Virus record (IMG/VR): IMGVR_UViG_3300011417_000024
Location: 1-26,762 of that record
Reading direction: 5' to 3' (one strand)
Origin: a virus
Lineage: Duplodnaviria > Caudoviricetes
Length of the DNA: 26,762 nucleotides
Part shown: piece by piece, positions 1,455 through 26,440 of the stretch
Position numbering within the stretch: position 1 is the first letter of the stretch
Layout of the letters: each line of letters begins with the position of its first letter
The notes under the pieces: generated by a model
What the model was told of the DNA's origin: nothing
What the model saw: the letters and a program-made list of their open reading frames with translations, nothing else
Database searches by the model: none
Made by a program: the position numbers and the translations under genes

Positions 1455-1462
1455 TAGATTTA
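1455..1462 (+). promoter_or_regulatory. Candidate Bacteroidota-type -7 element (TAGATTTA)
   Basis: One mismatch to TAnnTTTG, with TTG at 1435-1437 and a terminator about 60 nt downstream. Confidence 0.35.
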
Positions 1463-1495
1463 GCTTGTATTAAGTCTTTTCATTAATTCCATACT

Positions 1496-1524
1496 AGCTT
1501 CCTTAATCCAGGGAAGCTTTTTTT
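1496..1524 (+). terminator. Intrinsic terminator
   Basis: Stem AGCTTCC/GGAAGCT followed by a T tract. Confidence 0.8.
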
Positions 1525-1530
1525 ATTTTA

Positions 1531-6373: not shown

Positions 6374-7462
6374 ATGATTCCTACTATTTATGTCTCAAAG
6401 CAGTTGCATTACCAGGATGGCCACTCTGATAAAGTTTACAATGTAACTATTGAAGAAGTTCAGCCAGCTTTATATGTAGTGAATTTTGCTTATGGCAGAC
6501 GCGGATCTACACTTCAAACTGGTACTAAAACCAGTAAGCCTACAGGTATTCTTGAAGCTGAAAAAATTGCCCGCAAGCTGATCACTGAAAAATTAAACAA
6601 AGGTTATGTTGATGTGAGTGCTGGTCAAGGGCAAGTTAACATTGTTACTGTGCCTAAAGCTAAAGCTAAGGCTGCTGTTTTCCCCATGTTACTTATTCCT
6701 ATTGATGAAGACGAAGTAGAACAGTATTTGGAAGATGATAACTGGATCATGCAAGAGAAAATTGATGGTGAGCGCAGAATGATTGAAACTGCTTATGGTA
6801 TGAGCAGGGGCTTAAACCGTAAAGGCCAGGAAGTAGCTTTACCTGCAACTATTGAACAAGCCATCAATAAAATCAGTCTTAAGAAATTAGGTATGATCTT
6901 CGATGGTGAGCAGATTGGTGATGACTATCATGTTTTTGATTTACTAGGTGAATCTACCAGCAATGCGCTGGCTTTTAAGAAACGCCATGAGGTGTTGCTA
7001 GAGTTAATAAACAAATACAACACAAGCCCTCACATTCATTTAGTAAAAGCTGCTCAGGGATTTGCTGCTAAATCAAAGCTTTATGAAAAGCTTAAAGCTG
7101 ACAACAAAGAAGGCGTAGTATTCAAACACCAAGCTGGATTGTATACACCAGGAAGAACACAAGATGCAGTGAAATACAAGTTTTACGAGACTGCCAGCTT
7201 TGTAGTATCTGCTCTCAATGCACAGCGCTCAGTTCAGATTGCTGTTATGGCTGGTGATGCTTGTCTTCCGGTAGGCAATGTAACCATACCCGTGAATCAT
7301 GCAATACCTAAAATAGGTGCAGTAGTTGAAGTCAGATATTTATATGCTTATGCAGAAGGCTCGGTGTATCAACCAGTTTATCTTGGGGAGCGTAGTGACA
7401 TCAGCCCCAGTGATTGTTCCATGTCACAGCTCAAGTATAAACCAAACATTTCTTTAATTTAA
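6374..7462 (+). CDS. WGR-domain ATP-dependent DNA ligase
   Basis: N-terminal SDKVY...VNFAYGRRG...EKLNKGY (WGR domain). Nucleotidyltransferase motifs EKIDGER, FDGE, FDLL, EGVVFK, VKYK. C-terminal OB fold VEVRYLY...YQPVYLGERSD. Confidence 0.9.
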   Translation: MIPTIYVSKQLHYQDGHSDKVYNVTIEEVQPALYVVNFAYGRRGSTLQTGTKTSKPTGILEAEKIARKLITEKLNKGYVDVSAGQGQVNIVTVPKAKAKAAVFPMLLIPIDEDEVEQYLEDDNWIMQEKIDGERRMIETAYGMSRGLNRKGQEVALPATIEQAINKISLKKLGMIFDGEQIGDDYHVFDLLGESTSNALAFKKRHEVLLELINKYNTSPHIHLVKAAQGFAAKSKLYEKLKADNKEGVVFKHQAGLYTPGRTQDAVKYKFYETASFVVSALNAQRSVQIAVMAGDACLPVGNVTIPVNHAIPKIGAVVEVRYLYAYAEGSVYQPVYLGERSDISPSDCSMSQLKYKPNISLI

Positions 7463-8184: not shown

Positions 8185-8781
8185 ATGAGACAACTTTTTA
8201 AAATATTTCTGGTAATAATAGTTACTACCGGGAGCAGTTACAGCCAGGATGCAAATGGGGATCCTGTGCAGCCTCATCATGTTTACGGTAAAGGTATACA
8301 ACAGCCTTATGGGCAAGGTCCTTTAGCTGCTTGTACAGTACAGTGGGAACCTATGGATACTACGTTTACCCTTACCATTTTTACTGATCCTGATTTATTA
8401 GAAATAACCAGTATAAAGTATTTTGGAGGGCATACGCGTGCAGCAGAAACTATTAAGGTTGATGCTAAAGCAGATATCAGAATTGCTACTACGTATACAC
8501 ATGCCATATACCTTAAAACAATATTTGGTGTTACCAGTATACTTTTTATACGTGATCCTGCTACAGGTAAAGGCGTAGTATTAGGAAATGGCAGGGTGTT
8601 TTTTCTATTAGACACTGCTACATCTTTTGTACACACAGATCCTGCAACAACAGGTATAGATATGGATGCATATCGTCATATTAAATGGCAATGGCATCCT
8701 ATTTATGATCTATGGGTGAGCCGGCAGCAAAAAGCCAAGACTGCTTTTATTGATATCAAAAAAGAAAACCTGGTATACTAA
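8185..8781 (+). CDS. Hypothetical protein with probable signal peptide
   Basis: MRQLFKIFLVIIVTTGSSYS-Q resembles a Bacteroidota signal peptide with Gln at +1. Confidence 0.7.
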   Translation: MRQLFKIFLVIIVTTGSSYSQDANGDPVQPHHVYGKGIQQPYGQGPLAACTVQWEPMDTTFTLTIFTDPDLLEITSIKYFGGHTRAAETIKVDAKADIRIATTYTHAIYLKTIFGVTSILFIRDPATGKGVVLGNGRVFFLLDTATSFVHTDPATTGIDMDAYRHIKWQWHPIYDLWVSRQQKAKTAFIDIKKENLVY

Positions 8782-9822: not shown

Positions 9823-9896
9823 GTACCTGAATGCAATAAGCATAATAGCCAAAGCCTTATTCCATCTCCTGTCCAGTGGTTCAAGCTGGGCTACCA

Positions 9897-10006
9897 GCCC
9901 CTGTGGTGAAATTGGCAAACACAGGTAAAATAGCGGAATGCATGCGCATCTCTTCTACATTTATCCGTCTGAAAATGACATACAGGTTCGACTCCTGTTG
10001 GGGGCT
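9897..10006 (+). ncRNA. tRNA-Leu-like RNA with a 32-nt anticodon loop (25 extra nt)
   Basis: Acceptor GCCCCTG/TGGGGGC, Leu-type D arm GTG-AAATTGGCAAA-CAC, stem GGTAA/TTATC, variable arm GTC/GAC, T arm ACAGG-TTCGACT-CCTGT. Confidence 0.75.
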
Positions 10007-10018
10007 CAAGTTTTATTT

Positions 10019-10128
10019 AGAGGGGTGAAGACAGATGTACAGTAAGGTGGTATTTCCGTAGTTGTTGGTGCTACAAACCTGTGCATTTTTGGGTTTTCTA
10101 CGTGGAGGTTCGAATCCTCCTCCCTCTG
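10019..10128 (+). ncRNA. tRNA-like RNA (acceptor stem plus T arm) carrying one long hairpin in place of the D and anticodon arms
   Basis: AGAGGGG/TCCCTCT, GGAGG-TTCGAAT-CCTCC, inner GAAGAC/GTTTTC, AGATGTACAG/CTGTGCATTT, GTGGTATT/GGTGCTAC, loop TCCGTAGTTGTT. Confidence 0.75.
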
Positions 10129-10156
10129 CTATTTTTCACTGTATAATCTAACTAAC

Positions 10157-10429
10157 ATGCTTAAATCAATCCGAAAATTTATTGTTAAAGCCTGGCATTG
10201 GCTATTATGTCACATAATAGGCTATCATGAACTTGTTACCCCGTTTCTTGAAAGGGGTAGTATAGATCCTGAAGTTATAGCTCTTGTTACTAATCCCAAT
10301 CTTACTGCAGAAGAATTTCTTGAAATTGCTGTAAGAGATAGTAAGGTATATTGCAAGCATTGCAGAAGATACTTTACTCCTGGTAGAGGGTATTCAAAGC
10401 TTACTCATCCTAGAGAACTTAAAGATTAA
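10157..10429 (+). CDS. Hypothetical protein with C/H metal-binding motif
   Basis: LLCHIIGYH...YCKHC. Confidence 0.75.
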   Translation: MLKSIRKFIVKAWHWLLCHIIGYHELVTPFLERGSIDPEVIALVTNPNLTAEEFLEIAVRDSKVYCKHCRRYFTPGRGYSKLTHPRELKD

Positions 10430-10737: not shown

Positions 10738-11490
10738 ATGAAACAACATAAAGTAATGTCCATTGATTTTAAGCACAGCAATCCAGGTGTAGTTTTTGCA
10801 TCTGAAGAGGAATTTAAACAAGATTGCATAGCCAGCTTACAAGATCTTCTTAAGCGCAGAATAGAATTTATGGGAGATGTGGAGATTACAGAAGAAAATC
10901 TGCCTCCATTGCCAATGTTTGTTAATGTTTATTTTGAAAATGGTAGTTATGCTGCTACGTTGCTCCATCCTGAAAGCGATACAGACAAGCAGTATTTACT
11001 TACTGGTGTGAAGAAGATGCTGGCTAAGTACAATGCAGCCAAGAAAATCAAAAGTGTATTACTTATGATGGAAGCCTGGGTAGGAGAAATAGATACAAAA
11101 GCAAGAAAGAAAGAGGATCCTTTTACCAAAGAAATGTCAGAGGAACAGATGCAACGCAGAATAAGCCGTGAATGGAAAGAGAACAAGATCAAAAAAGTTA
11201 CCCGGATAGTTTGTGAATATCAAACTCCGGTGATGATTGATAATAAACGGCACACACAAGTATCTACTTCAGTGTATAAATTATTCGAACATAAGATTTT
11301 AATACCTGATGAAGAACTTACCAAAAAGATGAGTTATAACACAAACTCTAAAGATCATAACCGAAAGCCCTGGTTTAGTATGTTCACTGAATTTGCAGCA
11401 GATGATGCTGTTGCTGATAAAGATGTATTAAATTTTAATGTTTTTACAGCAGTAACATTTCTCAAAAAGCTGAACAAGCTGATGCAATAA
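10738..11490 (+). CDS. Hypothetical protein
   Basis: 250 aa ORF with an EAW motif. Confidence 0.8.
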   Translation: MKQHKVMSIDFKHSNPGVVFASEEEFKQDCIASLQDLLKRRIEFMGDVEITEENLPPLPMFVNVYFENGSYAATLLHPESDTDKQYLLTGVKKMLAKYNAAKKIKSVLLMMEAWVGEIDTKARKKEDPFTKEMSEEQMQRRISREWKENKIKKVTRIVCEYQTPVMIDNKRHTQVSTSVYKLFEHKILIPDEELTKKMSYNTNSKDHNRKPWFSMFTEFAADDAVADKDVLNFNVFTAVTFLKKLNKLMQ

Positions 11491-11509
11491 TAATCTTAAA
11501 CTTACAACT

Positions 11510-13708
11510 ATGCTTAGAAGAGTTCTTATTACCAGAAATACAGCTTATCTGGGCATGGTTGATGAGTTTAACTTATTAAACAGGCCTAATGAAAGTTTTC
11601 ACGTTGTTACTACTGATGAGCAGATCAACAAGATCAAGCAATTTATTAAAGACCTCGAGCCTGTAATAGGCTTAGACATTGAAACTCCCTGTACAGATCC
11701 TTATTGTGGTGAGATACTGCTTACTACACTCAGCACTCCTGAGATGGTAGTCACTTTTGATCATTTTACCATTACGCCGGAAGAAATGCTGCAAGGCCTG
11801 GATCTTGAGCATAAGCTTATTATAGCACACAATGCCAAGTTTGAAGTCAGCTGGTTTTTAAAACACAAACAGGAATTTCCTAATGTGCACTGCACTATGC
11901 TCGCAGAGCAAAAGCTTTATCAAGGCTGTGAAGATCTGCGGCATAATATCATAGAAGTGTTAACCCGAAGAGGTTTTGCTATTCCTGAAGACATGAACAA
12001 AGATGTCAGGGAGGATTTTGTACAGCCTTGGTATAAGCAACATACTTTGGTGCACGTACTGTATAACCAATCTGATACGTTGTTATTGCATCAGCTCAAG
12101 TTGTTGCAAGACACATTGATAGAAGATCTGGGTTTAACATTTCATATAAAACAAATTCATTTTCCCTTAATTAAAGTCTTGGCTAAAGCTGAGCTTGAGG
12201 GCGTAGTTATTAACGAGCCCGAGCTTATAAGATTAGCCCGGGAAGCTGCAGCTAAAATGCAGGTGTTAGAACAGGACATGAATGCTTGGTTAAACTTGCA
12301 ATATCCTACTGTGGATCTGATTAGTTTAAACAAGCCCCTGGTTACAGATCTGGCCAAAGTCAGGACCCGCTTAATCCGGACTGAAGGCAGAGCTATTAAA
12401 ACAGAAGGCTTGATTCTCCGGTATGAAACCCAGAGTAAACAGCATCTGAAAGCTTATCAGGTAGCTGTAAAAAGTAACAGTGCAGCTGCTACAGCCTATC
12501 AGGCTGCTGTAGTGCTGTTAAAAGAGCTGGAAAAGCAAGTAAGCATCTCCTGGAGTAGCTCTGCACAGGTGCTGGTCTTATTAAATACCCTGGGCTGCCA
12601 TCCATTGCCTCAGGCAAAGGATAGGAAGACAGGTAAGTTCAAGCCCAGCTTAGGAAAAGCTGCCCGGGAACGCTGGCTATTGAAGCGTAAGGACCATGTT
12701 TTATACCCCTTAATGGTCCAGTATGATCAGTACATGAAGCTTAGTAAGCATGTGAACAGTTTTGGAGAGAGTTTCCTGACCAAGTACAAACACCCAATTA
12801 CCGGTAGATATCACACCAGCTATAAGCAGGGGCGGGTAGCTACTGGCAGGCTTGCTTCAGGAGATGCCAAAGGACATCCTGCTAAGTTTAATTCCCAGCA
12901 AATTATAGGTATTGCAGCTGTAAGAGCCTGCTTTGGCACTACTCCCGGTGATAATATCGCTACAGTAGATTTATCTGGTGCTGAGTTGATTACCATGTGT
13001 AGTTTAGCTAATGACTTGAACTTGCTTAAGCTTTCTACCGGGGATATGCATAGTTATTTTGCTAACCTGGGCTGGAAAGCTATTTATAAGCATAGAAAGC
13101 AGCCATGGACCTCTGCAGATGAGATCAGCAAGAAGCAACATCCTGAGAAGCGCAAGGAATACAAGCCTATGTTATTTGGTACTGTGTATGGTTTGAAACC
13201 AGCTAAAGCTGGGGAGACATTAAACATTCCCGAGCATGAAGGTGGCATTGCTCTGAATACAATCATTGCAGAAATACCGGATACTATCAAAATGGTAAAA
13301 GAAGCTGTGAGATTTAGTTTGCAAAACGGATATGTTATACATAATAACAGAACCAGATCCCGGAGATGGTTTCCTCAGGTGTTTAAAGCCCGTGATGAAA
13401 AACGTGAGCTTACTTTTTTAGAGCGCATGGAAGTAGAAGGTGGTGCACGCAACACCAGAATCCAGGGGACTCAAGCTGATATGTTATGTGAAAGCATGGT
13501 ATTTCTTCAACGTTACATAGACCTGTATAAAATTCCTGCAGTGTTATTAATGCAAGTTCATGATGAGCTGGTAGTAAAATACAAGAAAGATCTTACCTGG
13601 TTTCCTGCAAGAGTATCCGAGATCATGACCAGAACTGCTAACAAATACCTGAGGCCTGGTATTGTAATGAAAGCAGACATGAAGTTTGGGCCGTATTGGG
13701 ATAAATAA
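11510..13708 (+). CDS. polA: Family A DNA polymerase with 3'-5' exonuclease
   Basis: Exonuclease motifs DIET, HNAKFE and YNQSD; TGRLAS; motif A DLSGAEL; motif B RKEYKPMLFGTVYG (Phe at the E. coli 762-equivalent position); NTRIQGTQAD; motif C VHDEL. Confidence 0.97.
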   Translation: MLRRVLITRNTAYLGMVDEFNLLNRPNESFHVVTTDEQINKIKQFIKDLEPVIGLDIETPCTDPYCGEILLTTLSTPEMVVTFDHFTITPEEMLQGLDLEHKLIIAHNAKFEVSWFLKHKQEFPNVHCTMLAEQKLYQGCEDLRHNIIEVLTRRGFAIPEDMNKDVREDFVQPWYKQHTLVHVLYNQSDTLLLHQLKLLQDTLIEDLGLTFHIKQIHFPLIKVLAKAELEGVVINEPELIRLAREAAAKMQVLEQDMNAWLNLQYPTVDLISLNKPLVTDLAKVRTRLIRTEGRAIKTEGLILRYETQSKQHLKAYQVAVKSNSAAATAYQAAVVLLKELEKQVSISWSSSAQVLVLLNTLGCHPLPQAKDRKTGKFKPSLGKAARERWLLKRKDHVLYPLMVQYDQYMKLSKHVNSFGESFLTKYKHPITGRYHTSYKQGRVATGRLASGDAKGHPAKFNSQQIIGIAAVRACFGTTPGDNIATVDLSGAELITMCSLANDLNLLKLSTGDMHSYFANLGWKAIYKHRKQPWTSADEISKKQHPEKRKEYKPMLFGTVYGLKPAKAGETLNIPEHEGGIALNTIIAEIPDTIKMVKEAVRFSLQNGYVIHNNRTRSRRWFPQVFKARDEKRELTFLERMEVEGGARNTRIQGTQADMLCESMVFLQRYIDLYKIPAVLLMQVHDELVVKYKKDLTWFPARVSEIMTRTANKYLRPGIVMKADMKFGPYWDK

Positions 13709-16402: not shown

Positions 16403-16445
16403 TTGCTTTTTTTACCTTCAACACCCTGTTTAACCCATTTTTACT

Positions 16446-16946
16446 ATGCTTACAACTGATAAAAAAGAGTTGGCTGATATTGCTGACCAAATCCGTGCAC
16501 TAGCTCTCCTTTCTGTCCTTGTAGAAGATCCAACTTCGGGTCTGATCCAGCTTAATCCAGAAATGTATATTCATATTGGCAGAGCTACTCCAACAAATCC
16601 AAGCAATAATGCTCAGCGGGCTAAGTCTTTGGTAGGGCCCTATCAAAAGTTATGGCCTGCAAAGATTGCTTCAGGAGGCAGACCTATAAGACAAGGCCCT
16701 GTAGCTTTGATTAAAAAGCTTACTGTATTTCTTAATAAGCATCCTAAAGTTACAGAACAGCAAATCCTGGATGCAACTACCCGCTATATAGCTATGAAAG
16801 CTAAAGAGAATTATAACTATATGGTATGTAGTGATTACTTCATTGAAAAAGGAAGTACCAGTGTACTTGAAAGCTATATCACAAATCCAGAACTTGGTTC
16901 AAAAGCATTAGAATCTGCTAAAGCTATAAACCAGCGCTTTATATGA
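16446..16946 (+). CDS. Phage protein coupled to DnaB (putative helicase loader or replication initiator)
   Basis: WP...GRPIR...ILDATTRYI...YM...YFI pattern and ATGA coupling to dnaB. Function is inferred from position. Confidence 0.5.
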   Translation: MLTTDKKELADIADQIRALALLSVLVEDPTSGLIQLNPEMYIHIGRATPTNPSNNAQRAKSLVGPYQKLWPAKIASGGRPIRQGPVALIKKLTVFLNKHPKVTEQQILDATTRYIAMKAKENYNYMVCSDYFIEKGSTSVLESYITNPELGSKALESAKAINQRFI

Positions 16947-18007: not shown

Positions 18008-18240
18008 TGGGTAACAAATTCAATCATATTTATACTAATACATACATAGAAAATCCAACGTGTAGCATATGTGGATCAAGGATCTCACATGAATGGCTGG
18101 CAGGAGACTATACTATGCTAGTTTGTAGCAAAGAGGAGTGCTTCGATGAATGGAGTTTGAAGCGTCTCGAGGATCAAAGAAAACATAGGCTGCAAAATGC
18201 AGTTAATGAAGTTCTGCAAATCCTCGAGGGAAAAAAATAA
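18007..18240 (+). CDS. Small Zn-finger protein
   Basis: CSIC...CSKEEC. Confidence 0.7.
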   Translation: MGNKFNHIYTNTYIENPTCSICGSRISHEWLAGDYTMLVCSKEECFDEWSLKRLEDQRKHRLQNAVNEVLQILEGKK

Positions 18241-18263
18241 AAATTATACTAAAATTAAAAAAC

Positions 18264-19019
18264 ATGGCGAAAGCAATTCTAGTAATTGGCGACATGGGTA
18301 CAGGTAAAAGTACTTCTCTGAGAAATCTACCTCCTACAGAGACAATTATCATTACACCTAACTCCAAGGATCTTCCCTGGGAGGGTGCTATGAAATATTT
18401 CAATAAGAGAAACGGCAACCTGATATCCTGTCTGAAAATTAAAAAAGCTGTGATGACAGACCCCAATGAAGCTAATGGGGTATTAGAAAATCTTGCTCTT
18501 GCAAACAAAAATCCAGTGATCAAGTATGTTGTTCTTGAAGATTTAACACACTTCATGAATGACAGGATGTTGGATGATAAATTTGTAGCGAGTCAGGATT
18601 GGAGTAAGTGGAACAGGTTTGGTGCTGATATGTTTGCTATTACAACCAAACACATCCAGAGCATGAGAGATGATTTAACTGTGATTATCATTGGCCACAC
18701 TGAGGCTAAAGATAATGGCGTAATGGGATTGCAAACAGCAGGAAAGCTGTTGGATAATACTGTGAAGCTACCCAGTTATTTTACTTATGTATTTCATAGC
18801 AGGGTGTTTAGTCAGAACAATGTGCTGACTTACAAGTTCCAGACTCACAATGACGGTAAATACCTGGCTAAAACACCAATGGGTATGTTCAAAGATGATT
18901 TTGTAGATAATGATATGAAAGACATCATCACTACAATTGATGACTATAGAAATGGCAAAGCTATTACAGCTACTGCTGCTCCTGTAGCAACTCCTGGCGT
19001 GCCCGTCAAGCTGGGTTAA
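18264..19019 (+). CDS. AAA_24 / Sak4-like ATPase (putative single-strand annealing recombinase)
   Basis: GDMGTGKSTS, VVLED, IIGH, TAGKLLD and AKTPMGMF motifs. Confidence 0.85.
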   Translation: MAKAILVIGDMGTGKSTSLRNLPPTETIIITPNSKDLPWEGAMKYFNKRNGNLISCLKIKKAVMTDPNEANGVLENLALANKNPVIKYVVLEDLTHFMNDRMLDDKFVASQDWSKWNRFGADMFAITTKHIQSMRDDLTVIIIGHTEAKDNGVMGLQTAGKLLDNTVKLPSYFTYVFHSRVFSQNNVLTYKFQTHNDGKYLAKTPMGMFKDDFVDNDMKDIITTIDDYRNGKAITATAAPVATPGVPVKLG

Positions 19020-21948: not shown

Positions 21949-23028
21949 ATGAAAAAAATCGCAATCAAAACCAACTTACTAGGCAGGGGAGAAACTTTTA
22001 AAATTCTGGCTGTAGGCCATGCTACAGGCTATCCAGTACTACTCGTGGGCCCTCCAGGTGTGGGTAAAACCAGAGTGTTGCTGGATTACAGCATGGGCCT
22101 GAACAATGGCAATGCTATAGATGCATTGCAACATACTTTCATTCTGGAAACAGATGAAGGAACCAGACCAGCCGAGATCAAAGGTAGAGTAGACATGGAG
22201 AAGCTGCTTGCTCCTGGTATTGACACCGCTACCGGTAAAAACCTTACGCCAAGATATGAGCTGAACTCTCCTATTACAAAATCAAAAATGATTTTGATCA
22301 ATGAGGTGGATAAAGCCAATCCTGGTTTGAGAAACTCTATGCTTGGTGTCATGAATGAGAAAATGCTGTTCAATGGCCAGGACAAGATTTACTGCCCATG
22401 GGAACTGTTCTGTGCAAGCTGTAATGTTATCCCTAAAGAGGAAGCTAACAATCCTTTCTGGGATAGGTTTGTGATCAAGCATCAAGTTAATAGGTTAACT
22501 AAAACACAACTGTTGCAATACTTCGGCAAGAATTCAAAGGCTCCAGTGGAGATTAATCTCCCTGAAAGCAATGATATTGACACATTTATTGCCAGCGATA
22601 TCAACAGTGATTTGCTGAGAAGCTTTTTGGATGTGACTTATGATATCCTGTCTGACAGAAGCTTGAGTTATATCCCACGCATCATTGCTGCAGTAGCTTT
22701 TGTATTTGATGTAAACGTAAAAAAAGCTGCTATTAAGGCTTGTGAAATCCTGGCTGGTCCAGAGCGTGCCAAAACATTAGGCACCAAACTTGAGCCTGCT
22801 GAGATCAGCAACATCAGGAACAAAATAGAGTATATTAATACACTGCAAAACTATGATCAGATCTTGAATCAAATCGAAGATATCAAGAAAGCTGCCAAAG
22901 CTGCAAGTGTGCTTGATTCTGTCACCAAGGTTGATCTGGAAGACCTGGCTAAAGATTTAAACAAAATCTTGTCCAAGCATCCAGTGTATAATGCTGGTCT
23001 GCCTCAAGATGCAGTATCTGCAAACTAA
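21949..23028 (+). CDS. MoxR/RavA-type AAA+ ATPase
   Basis: GPPGVGKT, LINEVDKA, RNSMLGVMNEK, ASCN and FWDRF motifs. Confidence 0.9.
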   Translation: MKKIAIKTNLLGRGETFKILAVGHATGYPVLLVGPPGVGKTRVLLDYSMGLNNGNAIDALQHTFILETDEGTRPAEIKGRVDMEKLLAPGIDTATGKNLTPRYELNSPITKSKMILINEVDKANPGLRNSMLGVMNEKMLFNGQDKIYCPWELFCASCNVIPKEEANNPFWDRFVIKHQVNRLTKTQLLQYFGKNSKAPVEINLPESNDIDTFIASDINSDLLRSFLDVTYDILSDRSLSYIPRIIAAVAFVFDVNVKKAAIKACEILAGPERAKTLGTKLEPAEISNIRNKIEYINTLQNYDQILNQIEDIKKAAKAASVLDSVTKVDLEDLAKDLNKILSKHPVYNAGLPQDAVSAN

Positions 23029-23053
23029 TTTTTAATTTTTAAATCTACCAACT

Positions 23054-24424
23054 ATGGCAAAGAAGACCGGTAAATGGGATAATTGGAGTTGGGAAGATGC
23101 TTTTCAAGTCTCAGAGAGGGAGCTGGTTAACCCCAAGCTCTCTCGCTGGGATAAAAGCGATCTATATGATCTGCTTGTAGTAAGAGATCTGCGTAAACAT
23201 TGTGCTGATAAAAATATTCAGCCTTATGCTGCAATGTCTGATGTAGATTTCGAAGCTGCAGTTGAAAAAGTATTCCCGAAATATATGTTGTATGATACCT
23301 ATAACATTAATCACACACCTACAGAAAATATCAAGCTTGCCAATACAGATGAAAACAACAAATGGCTTTTTGATTTCTTAATGAACAAAGCCACGGGTTA
23401 TTATTCTAAAACTGTCACTCAGCAAAATCCTTTTAACAGTTATGTGTACAGCTCTGAGATCATGAAGCAGCTGTTTGATATATATCAACAGGAAAATCCT
23501 CAGGGCCCTGGTGATGGTGATGGTGAAGGTAAAGATGGTAAAGGCCAGTCTGGTATGCAGAAAATGCTAAGCAAAATGCAAAGCAATTCAAAAGGCAATC
23601 AGAAGCTGGATAAAGCCATGGACCAGGCTCAGCAAAAAGCAGATGAAAGGATCAAAGACGCTGATGATACTGGCAATGCTACAGGAGATCTTGGATGTGA
23701 TAAATCCATGGGTGATTTTAGCCTGGGAGAGTTATCAGAATTCATGAACTACATGGAAGCACTGGATAACATAGAGCTACCAGAATCTGTAGTAACCAGC
23801 TTTGTGAAGAATACCTTAAAGCTTTCTGAAGCTTATTTTTCCACCAAGTACACAGAATCTCAGGTAGAGTTGCTCGAGGCTGATGTAATAGATGATCTAT
23901 CTAACATAGAATATCTGTTTCCTCAGCTGAGGGCACTAGGTCTGGACAATATTGTAACTCATGAGCGTAAATACCACATGAAGTTTGATCTGTTTGTAGA
24001 TATTTCCGGATCTATGAGCAGTCAGATCTATGATGTTAAAGGTAATGGCAGCATTGCTGGTATAGACCTGGCCAAGATCACTGCCCTAAAGCTTAAAAAC
24101 ATGGGTCATGTAGAGGATGTATATCCTTTTCAGTCCAGGGTAGAAAAAAAGCTTACCAAGAAAAGTGACATCGCGTTGATGAAATGCACCGGAGGTACTG
24201 ATATCAATGAAGTTATTCGTACAGTACAAAAAACAGACAGGCCCAGTGTAGTGATCACAGACATGCAGGATAGTATAAGTATTTACGATCCTAATGTGTT
24301 CTTTGTGGGCATACTTGGAGCCACGTTTGAGAATTTCCGCGGACAAACTATAGGCAAACAATACATTGAAAACCGCCAGTGTATCAAATATGACAATACT
24401 AACAAGTTTGTCCTGGTGCAGTAA
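23054..24424 (+). CDS. von Willebrand factor A (VWA) domain protein, probable MoxR partner
   Basis: MIDAS DISGSM, GGTD and VITD; Gly/Asp-rich linker GPGDGDGEGKDGKG. Confidence 0.88.
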   Translation: MAKKTGKWDNWSWEDAFQVSERELVNPKLSRWDKSDLYDLLVVRDLRKHCADKNIQPYAAMSDVDFEAAVEKVFPKYMLYDTYNINHTPTENIKLANTDENNKWLFDFLMNKATGYYSKTVTQQNPFNSYVYSSEIMKQLFDIYQQENPQGPGDGDGEGKDGKGQSGMQKMLSKMQSNSKGNQKLDKAMDQAQQKADERIKDADDTGNATGDLGCDKSMGDFSLGELSEFMNYMEALDNIELPESVVTSFVKNTLKLSEAYFSTKYTESQVELLEADVIDDLSNIEYLFPQLRALGLDNIVTHERKYHMKFDLFVDISGSMSSQIYDVKGNGSIAGIDLAKITALKLKNMGHVEDVYPFQSRVEKKLTKKSDIALMKCTGGTDINEVIRTVQKTDRPSVVITDMQDSISIYDPNVFFVGILGATFENFRGQTIGKQYIENRQCIKYDNTNKFVLVQ

Positions 24425-24437
24425 TTTGTTACCTTTG
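24407..24437 (+). promoter_or_regulatory. Bacteroidota primary-sigma promoter
   Basis: TTTG (24407-24410), 19-nt spacer, TACCTTTG (24430-24437): an exact match to the TTTG / TAnnTTTG consensus. Confidence 0.75.
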
Positions 24438-24441
24438 CACT

Positions 24442-24517
24442 TCCTACAGTCTTCTAAGCATAGACTTAAGGTTATACAGTATATAAAAAGCCGTTATTTA
24501 TTAACGGCTTTTATTTT
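24442..24517 (+). ncRNA. Candidate trans-acting antisense sRNA against the polA start
   Basis: Bounded by a promoter and a terminator, contains no ORF, and 24450-24463 is the reverse complement of 11508-11521. The 5' end is approximate. Confidence 0.65.
24486..24517 (+). terminator. Intrinsic terminator, possibly bidirectional
   Basis: AAAAGCCGTTA/TAACGGCTTTT flanked by A and T tracts. Confidence 0.85.
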
Positions 24518-24558
24518 ATATTTTTTTCTGTATAGCTTTAGGAAAATGCTTACAACTT

Positions 24559-24912
24559 ATGGGCAGTAAACGTAACCGCACTGCAGGCCATGGCTTCGAG
24601 AGGTGCATTATCAACGAGCTTAAGCTATTAGGCTTCCCGGAAGCAGTTTCAGCAAGATCAGAAAGTAGAAATTTAGATGACAAAGGTGTTGATATCTGTA
24701 ATGTCAAGCCTTATAATATCCAATGTAAAAACACTGTGCTTACACCTAACTATCACGAGCTGATTACTAATATGCCACAGGATCCGGAAGTAGCCAACAT
24801 CGTCATTCATAGAAAAACTAAAAAAGCTAATACCAGGTTTGTAACCCAGGATGATTATGTGCTAATGCGAAAGTCAGACTTCTACAAGATCCTGAAAAAG
24901 CTTCATACTTAA
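24559..24912 (+). CDS. PD-(D/E)xK nuclease, Holliday junction resolvase-like
   Basis: GHGFER...GVD...IQCK motif. Confidence 0.8.
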   Translation: MGSKRNRTAGHGFERCIINELKLLGFPEAVSARSESRNLDDKGVDICNVKPYNIQCKNTVLTPNYHELITNMPQDPEVANIVIHRKTKKANTRFVTQDDYVLMRKSDFYKILKKLHT

Positions 24913-25617: not shown

Positions 25618-26366
25618 AAACTAACTTACAACGCAAAATCAGCTGGGAGCCAGCTTATGATAAACGTCATGCTGATCCTCAGAAAAACTATGGTGTACAT
25701 GGTTTGACCATGAGATTTTTAGTATCTGGCAAGCTTGGTACTGTACAGTTTTTACTATACACCAACTGGTTATTAGCCAGTACCCGGAAAGATTTTGATC
25801 AATTTGAAAAAGTCAGTAGGTTTTTGCTGGACCCTTTGCCGGCAGATATAGGCTATCATTCCAGGGTGCCTAGATATGAAGGCCAGAACCCAATGTTCAG
25901 AACCAAGATCAAGCGCAAAGCCCCAAAAGAAATTGTATTTGATGACGAAGTAGTAAGTCTGCCGGATTTTGAATTAGACAGAGAGTTCCTGCCAGAGCCT
26001 TGTATTTATCTTAACGGGGATCCTTGTTTTTATGACGGAAGTAGCTTAAATGCTGTAAGGTATTTTGATATCCTAGTAGAGAAAGGCGATGAAGCTTTGT
26101 GGCTTGCACTGGAAGATTATTACTCTAGGGCATTAGGTATTGAAGCAAGCTGGTTAAGCAAGTTTTACATTTTCGCTGACGAGACAGATAAAAACGAGCC
26201 TGTAAATCCAATACAATGGTTTTATATCTACAGGCATCAAAACGGGGCCTGGGAAAAAAGTGAAATGTTTAACAGTATACCCAGTGTTATCTGGTCAAAA
26301 ATAAAAACGCATTGCCAAGTATTTTACAAAAAATTTAATAAGTTTACAAGTAGAAAAACTGTATAA
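25614..26366 (+). CDS. Hypothetical protein
   Basis: 250 aa with DIGYHS and CFYDGSSL motifs. Confidence 0.8.
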   Translation: MKTNLQRKISWEPAYDKRHADPQKNYGVHGLTMRFLVSGKLGTVQFLLYTNWLLASTRKDFDQFEKVSRFLLDPLPADIGYHSRVPRYEGQNPMFRTKIKRKAPKEIVFDDEVVSLPDFELDREFLPEPCIYLNGDPCFYDGSSLNAVRYFDILVEKGDEALWLALEDYYSRALGIEASWLSKFYIFADETDKNEPVNPIQWFYIYRHQNGAWEKSEMFNSIPSVIWSKIKTHCQVFYKKFNKFTSRKTV

Positions 26367-26440
26367 CGCTTATGCTTTGCTTACAACTCAGACCTGGAGT
26401 TTCCTCTCCCGGTATTTTCACAACTAACTTTATCCTACTT

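Follow-up and report, generated by a model that had tools for sequence, protein, structure and literature searches.

Between a VWA-like gene and a gene for a RusA-like Holliday junction resolvase, a 26.8-kb virus record contains a short interval that a first-pass annotation interpreted as the gene of a stand-alone small RNA, complementary to the phage DNA polymerase gene polA at its start codon, 13 kb away. The locus raises the question of whether an RNA is made there and, if so, which genes it would control. We analysed the whole stretch of 26,762 nucleotides, referred to as the window, together with the corresponding regions of related phages. The sRNA gene is probably real and functional, as judged from its sequence features.

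Genome setting and the predicted RNA gene

The replication module of the phage lies on the + strand of the window (Table 1). The closest matches of its DnaB are from crAss-like and Flavobacterium phages, the best being cr85_1 and FpV4 with 29-30% identity. The model of the protein encoded by the dnaB-coupled gene at 16446 has its best fold matches in cr108_1, in a crAss-like virus, and in phi14:2. Relatives are found on contigs of 84-96 kb, and these complete genomes entered the analysis through their proteins. Judged by its replication-module proteins, the uncultured source phage appears to belong to the crAss-like phages (Crassvirales). No capsid, terminase, portal, or virion RNA polymerase markers were recognised among the 24 window proteins scanned. 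The VWA-like gene, which we take to deserve this label from a DxSxS-type motif and its MoxR neighbour, forms with the MoxR gene a pair (21949-24424) that has no full-length relative among GenBank phages and may mark this clade of 24 relatives. A Shine-Dalgarno motif precedes none of the 55 gene starts of the window, and 31 of the 55 carry an A at position -3, a pattern consistent with a host from the Bacteroidota (PMC7366714).

The predicted sRNA unit is composed of its own promoter, a short transcribed region without a long ORF, and an intrinsic terminator. The promoter, TTTG-N19-TAnnTTTG (24407-24437), is the sole one with both boxes among the 23 -7 boxes of the window. A consensus host promoter and a terminator had been proposed to bound about 75 nt, and both are found (24407-24437 and 24486-24512); the promoter is of the Bacteroidota primary-sigma type, with the consensus taken from PMC7366714, and not of the E. 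coli type. The predicted fold of the RNA consists of one small hairpin and the terminator. The anti-AUG triplet (24459-24461) has an unpaired probability of 0.98-1.0, in agreement with its proposed exposure in the loop of an AGTCT/AGACT hairpin. No Rfam family reaches its gathering score for the predicted sRNA. Contigs from four DNA runs, which cover the region patchily, have no listed letter change in the RNA or in the polA start.

Other elements of the window may also be non-coding. Two tRNA-like elements on the + strand (9896-10006 and 10020-10127) have recognisable acceptor and T arms and long middle inserts; neither was detected by ARAGORN or Rfam. The stretches 1020-1860 and 2170-2930 are devoid of + strand ORFs of at least 50 aa and contain several hairpins, and the first of them includes G/C runs near 1730-1790. 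They are a possible origin or further non-coding RNAs.

Table 1 Features of the window discussed in the text (start alone given where the end is not listed)
Feature	Position	Strand	Remark
-33 box TTTG	24407..24410	+	Inside the 3' end of the VWA-like gene; Bacteroidota primary-sigma type
-7 box TAnnTTTG	24430..24437	+	19 nt downstream of the -33 box
Predicted sRNA, ~75 nt	24442..24517	+	5' end inferred, 24440-24444
5-bp hairpin, 9-nt loop	24448..24466	+	Anti-AUG 24459-24461 in the loop
Seed 1	24450-24463	+	Anti-AUG seed; predicted to pair across the AUG
Seed 2	24466..24480	+	AGGTT core common to L003, L009, and L021; predicted to pair with leaders upstream of the AUG
Intrinsic terminator	24486..24517	+	11-bp stem and U tail; hairpin 24486-24512
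Predicted target: start of dnaB-coupled 166-aa gene	16426..16458	+	Best accessible target in the window; covaries
Predicted target: polA start	11490..11521	+	14-nt perfect match and upstream helix; lineage-specific
Cis hairpin over polA AUG	11496..11571	+	-31.5 kcal/mol, z -7.9, 0/200 shuffles
Predicted target: start of 90-aa gene (10157)	10138..10163	+	Three genes upstream of polA
Predicted target: resolvase leader	24528..24552	+	Trans target, or cis target within a read-through transcript
Predicted target: upstream ATG 26372	26358..26383	+	True start of the gene may be 26441
Seven-codon upstream ORF	24546-24569	+	Overlaps the resolvase start
polA	start 11510	+	Replication module
SF2 helicase gene		+	Replication module
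166-aa gene coupled to dnaB	16446..16946	+	Overlaps the dnaB start; crAss-like protein, no assigned function
dnaB	start 16943	+	
Sak4-like ATPase, primase, and MoxR genes		+	Replication module
SSB-like gene	start 19060	+	Atlas score 0.89, a lead only
VWA-like gene	23054..24424	+	Upstream marker of the sRNA slot; no Pfam match
RusA-like Holliday junction resolvase gene	24559..24912	+	Downstream marker of the sRNA slot

The same gap in related phages

Viral and metagenome scans identified eight lineages with a gap after the VWA-like gene. GTDB scans provided no further relatives, a motif scan of viral contigs returned only lineage L009, and a search of 12 sources and 3 records with a model of the RNA detected no paralogue. 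A unit of promoter-like box, short RNA, and terminator occupies the gap in five of the eight lineages examined: the species of the window, L003, L021, L009, and L004, the last of which also comprises L006, L020, and L022. Lineages with a VWA identity of at least 54% have the unit in five of six cases; the gap lacks it in L019 (59% VWA identity) and in L023 and L015 (32-33%). The -7 box in the slot is perfect in four of the five lineages and one base short in L003, and a + strand box is expected there by chance in about 1% of cases per genome at the density of the window. A -33 box at a spacing of 19-21 nt was found in the window and in none of the other lineages.

The RNAs of the window, L003, L009, and L021 can be aligned, and share a CAT triplet, an AGGTT motif, and the terminator. 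In the terminator stems, 86% of cells are paired and three of 11 pairs are changed on both sides; the terminator folds better on the + strand in all five lineages. The 5' hairpin was not seen in L003, L009, or L021. The L004/L006 RNA is not matched by a model built from the other four, so its homology rests on position, and it is described here as a same-slot counterpart and an unproven homologue. Of the three CAT triplets in the longer L004 RNA (8215-8282), two each pair with their own set of starts, giving this RNA the appearance of a tandem of two seed modules. We rejected a conserved minus-strand mini-gene as the content of the slot, since the peptides of 3-99 aa are unrelated between lineages. 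L009 has a second perfect -7 box (6470-6477) just upstream of the resolvase gene, past the terminator of the RNA, and the window has a comparable box with one mismatch at 24533.

Complementarity to gene starts

The reported 14-nt exact complementarity of 24450-24463 to 11508-11521 at the polA start is confirmed; on neither strand of the window does the RNA have a longer match. The second helix with the polA leader (10 bp, one G-U) and the 9-nt match of the seed to 16444-16452 are also present, and the ungapped register 24450-24474 / 11497-11521 is matched at 21 of 25 positions. Dinucleotide shuffles of the 5' domain reach at least 14 nt in 7 of 20,000 cases on 46 start regions, and in 164 of 20,000 when the whole window is considered. 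In terms of energy, the strongest of 500 shuffles (-30.2; shuffle mean -20.2) surpasses the best real duplex (-28.5). Gene starts were chosen by a custom script with hand corrections, and pairing energies are ViennaRNA duplex and accessibility estimates, not those of IntaRNA.

The 5' domain pairs in two parts, the anti-AUG seed and the AGGTT-containing seed, with several starts. Duplex energies are -27.9 kcal/mol for polA, -27.0 for the resolvase leader, -25.0 for ATG 26372, -22.6 for the dnaB-coupled gene, and -21.5 for the gene at 10157. The about equal pairing with the resolvase leader and with 26358-26383, and the weaker pairing with 10138-10163, had passed unnoticed in the first-pass annotation, as had the folding of the polA start into a cis hairpin. 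A ranking of 1,063 tiles over the + strand of the window puts gene starts, which make up 6.9% of the tiles, in the first three places; eight shuffles have 0-1 of their top ten tiles at starts. Real top-ten counts at starts are three for the window and four for L003, and the enrichment holds for these two; it is not significant for L006 (2/10) or L009 (1/10). Starts opening with the seven letters read by the loop number three of 55 in the window versus one of 131 in six other sets. The seven-codon ORF at 24546 shares its first 12 letters with the dnaB-coupled gene.

Two further stretches on the + strand of the window (1455-1525 and 1531-1660) are each formed by a near-consensus -7 box, a short RNA, and a terminator-like hairpin, and are possible sRNA genes; the box at 1531 has one mismatch, and that at 1455 was read by eye. 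These units (1455-1660) have no comparable match to gene starts (3/40 and 1/20 shuffles).

The polA start ranks first of 55 by hybrid energy, calculated from -30 to +20, and eighth of 53 when accessibility is counted, because its AUG is buried in a cis hairpin. The hairpin is the strongest fold among the 55 window starts; it begins 6 nt after the upstream stop codon, contains several G-U pairs, and holds the AUG in its 5' arm, and the opposite strand folds at -16.1. With the hairpin in place, net binding is -2.6 to -4.6 kcal/mol; two-strand folding gives -2.6 in this case, and -19.4 when the 3' arm is left out. RNA and hairpin would compete for the same strand of polA, and each would repress. 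The hairpin could also make polA translation depend on the upstream gene. L003 is the sole relative with both loci; its RNA does not match the polA start (z +0.6), and the start forms no hairpin. Absence of the complementarity in relatives retaining both loci had been named beforehand as evidence against polA as the target, and this absence is what L003 displays. According to this comparison, polA is not a conserved target of the predicted RNA, and the complementarity to it is lineage-specific. Strong folds also cover the VWA-like start at L006 11949 (-30.1, AUG paired) and the SF2 helicase start at L003 6208 (-26.7). Folding predictions suggest that start-burying hairpins are placed on different genes in different lineages.

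With accessibility counted, the start of the dnaB-coupled gene ranks first of 53 (-14.5 kcal/mol by two-strand folding). This start is available in three lineages that have the RNA: the window, L003, and L006. Their own RNA-start pairs reach -22.6, -18.6, and -33.8 kcal/mol, values attained by 0, 2, and 0 of 500 shuffles, and the anti-AUG falls on the AUG in all three; the six cross pairs are equalled by 95-430 of 500 shuffles. The L006 pair required the upstream limit of the start region to be widened after the fact from -30 to -45 (z -1.2 at -30). The post hoc chance that one of 11 shared genes would rank this high in all three lineages is 0.007, 0.027, or 0.25, depending on the ranking scheme, and in three of the other 16 cells of the shuffle matrix the counts are 3, 9, and 21 of 500. 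The covariation between sRNA and target that had been anticipated for polA is absent there, but is detected at the dnaB-coupled gene, previously given as an aside. The dnaB-coupled gene, not polA, is the candidate for a conserved target, as judged from these pairings.

The product of the dnaB-coupled gene belongs to no Pfam or PHROG family, none being common to its 13 aligned members, and has no solved relative by sequence or Foldseek. Its Atlas neighbours are Phg_2220_C (0.92) and Phage_rep_O (0.90), and replisome-organiser rows appear at E 0.7-1.6. Similarities to DnaD-like proteins (Z 4.4) and G39P (Z 3.8) are weak and occur among unrelated helical bundles. Together with its position, these weak leads indicate that the protein may be a replication initiator or helicase loader.

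A broader own-versus-cross comparison covered 16 orthologous genes, four RNAs, and four genomes. Strong duplexes (z < -2) are formed by nine of 52 own-genome pairs and by six of 208 cross-genome ones (Fisher P 5e-4); among the 24 ways of assigning the RNAs to the genomes, the true one scores best. The bulk distributions are not shifted (Mann-Whitney P 0.35). Strong own-genome matches number 6/55 in the window, 6/47 in L003, and 3/18 in L006, with 0-2 in each of the other sets. On its own genome and also on three foreign ones, the L003 RNA scores better than all 60 shuffles, and the window RNA does so on L027; part of the signal is therefore complementarity of a generic kind to start regions. 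Pairing with distant initiation regions appears to exceed chance and to be kept across relatives, in three lineages including the one with the widened start region, and fails for polA.

Single targets vary between lineages. At the SSB-like start, the matches of L006 (15 nt, perfect) and L009 (a 16-bp helix in the leader) differ in sequence, and the window has none; the MoxR start is matched in L003 and L006 and not in the window. The SSB-like, MoxR, polA, and resolvase-leader targets are likely lineage-specific extras. The gene at 10157 and L003 2090 were rejected as orthologous targets, as they share a position without protein similarity, and were left out of the own-versus-cross counts. L003 also encodes a 40-aa hydrophobic ORF (18187-18309), whose start ranks seventh of 47 among the matches of the L003 RNA. 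A role as a type I antitoxin was rejected, since this ORF is outranked by stronger matches at ordinary genes.

Proposed function and comparison with known RNAs

We favour, with some reservation, a trans-acting, host-transcribed, multi-target sRNA that would block the translation of replication genes, above all of the dnaB-coupled gene. Host RNA polymerase would transcribe the RNA independently of the phage programme, as its promoter suggests. Provided that the RNA is stable and pairs in vivo, seed 1 would bind across the target AUG, and seed 2 would bind the leader at 7-30 nt upstream, the part from which Bacteroidota ribosomes take their initiation signals. With the AUG and the leader covered, initiation of translation would be blocked. 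The dnaB-coupled gene overlaps the dnaB start, so its blocking would probably lower the helicase as well. Binding to the polA mRNA would be limited to the time before its hairpin has formed or to periods when ribosomes keep the hairpin unfolded. Within the earlier proposal of a phage-replication repressor made by host polymerase, a stand-alone sRNA with a host promoter is likely, given the recurrence of slot, box, terminator, and anti-AUG, but polA as the main target is not supported. The part of the proposal in which the sRNA likely represses replication genes gains support from pairing that tracks each RNA's own genome.

Four other explanations deserve consideration. The RNA could be mainly a polA-specific antisense repressor, for which the 14-nt match and 21 of 25 ungapped positions, the first rank by hybrid energy, and the binding of -19.4 kcal/mol while the 3' arm of the hairpin is unmade speak in favour; the lack of a match in L003 and the low net binding once the hairpin has formed (rank 8/53) make this unlikely. 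A slightly lower probability is given to a generic anti-start RNA aimed at mRNAs of the host or of other phages, which would match phage genes through the shared Bacteroidota leader style. The conserved anti-AUG and AGGTT are indeed the counterpart of a frequent leader motif (present at 16 of the 47 L003 starts), some of the RNAs score well on foreign starts, and a host promoter would fit early host takeover. However, this explanation does not account for the own-genome specificity at the dnaB-coupled gene, nor for the excess of strong own matches over the 0-2 of other sets.

We regard it as just as improbable that the unit is an ordinary operon terminator together with a promoter, with matches derived from an inverted gene-start copy or from base composition and without regulatory pairing. 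The minus strand does resemble a gene start and yields the first four residues of polA, AT-rich DNA gives many inverted long-range matches of 70-84%, and the overall own and cross distributions are not shifted. Against this stand the unrelated minus-strand peptides, the recurrence of the + strand -7 box in four of five lineages where about 1% per genome is expected, and the lack of comparable matches in the two other promoter-terminator units; moreover, a dead copy would not follow a changing target across three lineages. The least probable of the four is a mainly cis-acting element, in which the 5' domain on read-through RNA would fold over the terminator onto the resolvase leader and silence the resolvase. 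The region 24440-24560 folds at -37.6 kcal/mol (z -6.9) and the leader site is the best of the 1,063 tiles, but the four other lineages lack pairing of this kind (z -0.4 to +0.7), and the fold retains the terminator hairpin, so that little read-through is expected.

A multi-target sRNA acting in trans on replication genes, the reading preferred here, would have further consequences. Among the roles conceivable for it, namely timing, persistence, or the exclusion of a second phage, the last two would be favoured by its host promoter, which would leave the RNA switched on in the absence of phage transcription. CrAss-like phages persist for long without lysogeny (PMC8375218). We tentatively speculate, while considering it rather doubtful, that a crAss-like clade uses an RNA-only brake on its own DNA replication, acting on the initiator-helicase pair together with a changing group of other replication genes, with the seed retuned in each lineage and with lineage-specific control of persistence or superinfection that dispenses with a repressor protein. 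An sRNA with which the phage restrains its own helicase module would be a concrete control point of 75 nt, with natural compensatory pairs across three lineages and a host promoter, and would extend GibS- and FopS-style repression of start codons without Shine-Dalgarno sites to phage self-regulation. In the literature open to reading, we found no description of such an RNA in crAss-like phages; the terms 'crAss' and 'Bacteroid' have no hits in the text of the review PMC12197685.

The predicted sRNA resembles FopS and GibS of Bacteroides thetaiotaomicron, which repress by pairing with start codons, as demonstrated for FopS with compensatory rescue (PMC7366714, PMC11697453). According to extracts of these papers, it would have in common with FopS a short length, a primary-sigma promoter, and a 5' seed region, with both RNAs the pairing of several mRNAs on or beside their start codons, within a phylum that lacks Shine-Dalgarno sites, and with GibS two seeds on one target. 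RbpB protein binding in this class was defined by CLIP-seq (PMC11697453). Unlike the predicted sRNA, which is phage-borne, variable in its seed between lineages, and would be aimed at the phage's own replication genes, FopS and GibS are encoded on the chromosome, have a conserved sequence, and act against metabolic genes. The FopS model RF04319 gives 19.4 bits against a cut-off of 56 (E 0.79), so the RNA is not a member, and no GibS row is present among the matches listed.

The closest phage RNAs in purpose are C4 and CI, which act in trans on the phage's own genes and hold back lytic growth. They are processed structured RNAs of temperate elements and have antirepressor or transcription-termination sites as targets, whereas the targets predicted here are start codons of replication genes. 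The C4 and CI Rfam families are absent from the 20 matches listed, up to E 10, and the predicted fold, with its single small hairpin and terminator, is not the processed multi-stem structure of these families. C4 of P1/P7 and CI of satellite phage P4 are described as processed RNase P substrates and immunity RNA (PMC5499578).

The antisense RNAs sar of P22, OOP and aQ of lambda, and STnc6030 of BTP1 have one target each (PMC12197685, in part). As with these RNAs, binding of the predicted phage sRNA to phage mRNA would reduce expression, but its pairing is imperfect, multi-target, and reaches up to 14 kb. A cis-encoded antisense RNA of the sar or OOP type was rejected, since the predicted targets, on the same strand as the RNA, are at distances of 2-14 kb or immediately downstream. 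Trans-acting phage sRNAs tied to DNA replication are exemplified by PreS/LPR1 of lambda, which is Hfq-dependent and raises translation of host dnaN (bioRxiv 10.1101/2024.10.31.621285), and VpdS of VP882, which is Hfq-dependent and favours replication (extracts of PMC12197685). The predicted sRNA shares this tie to replication with PreS and VpdS; unlike them, it would be a repressor of phage genes, in a phylum reported to be without obvious Hfq.
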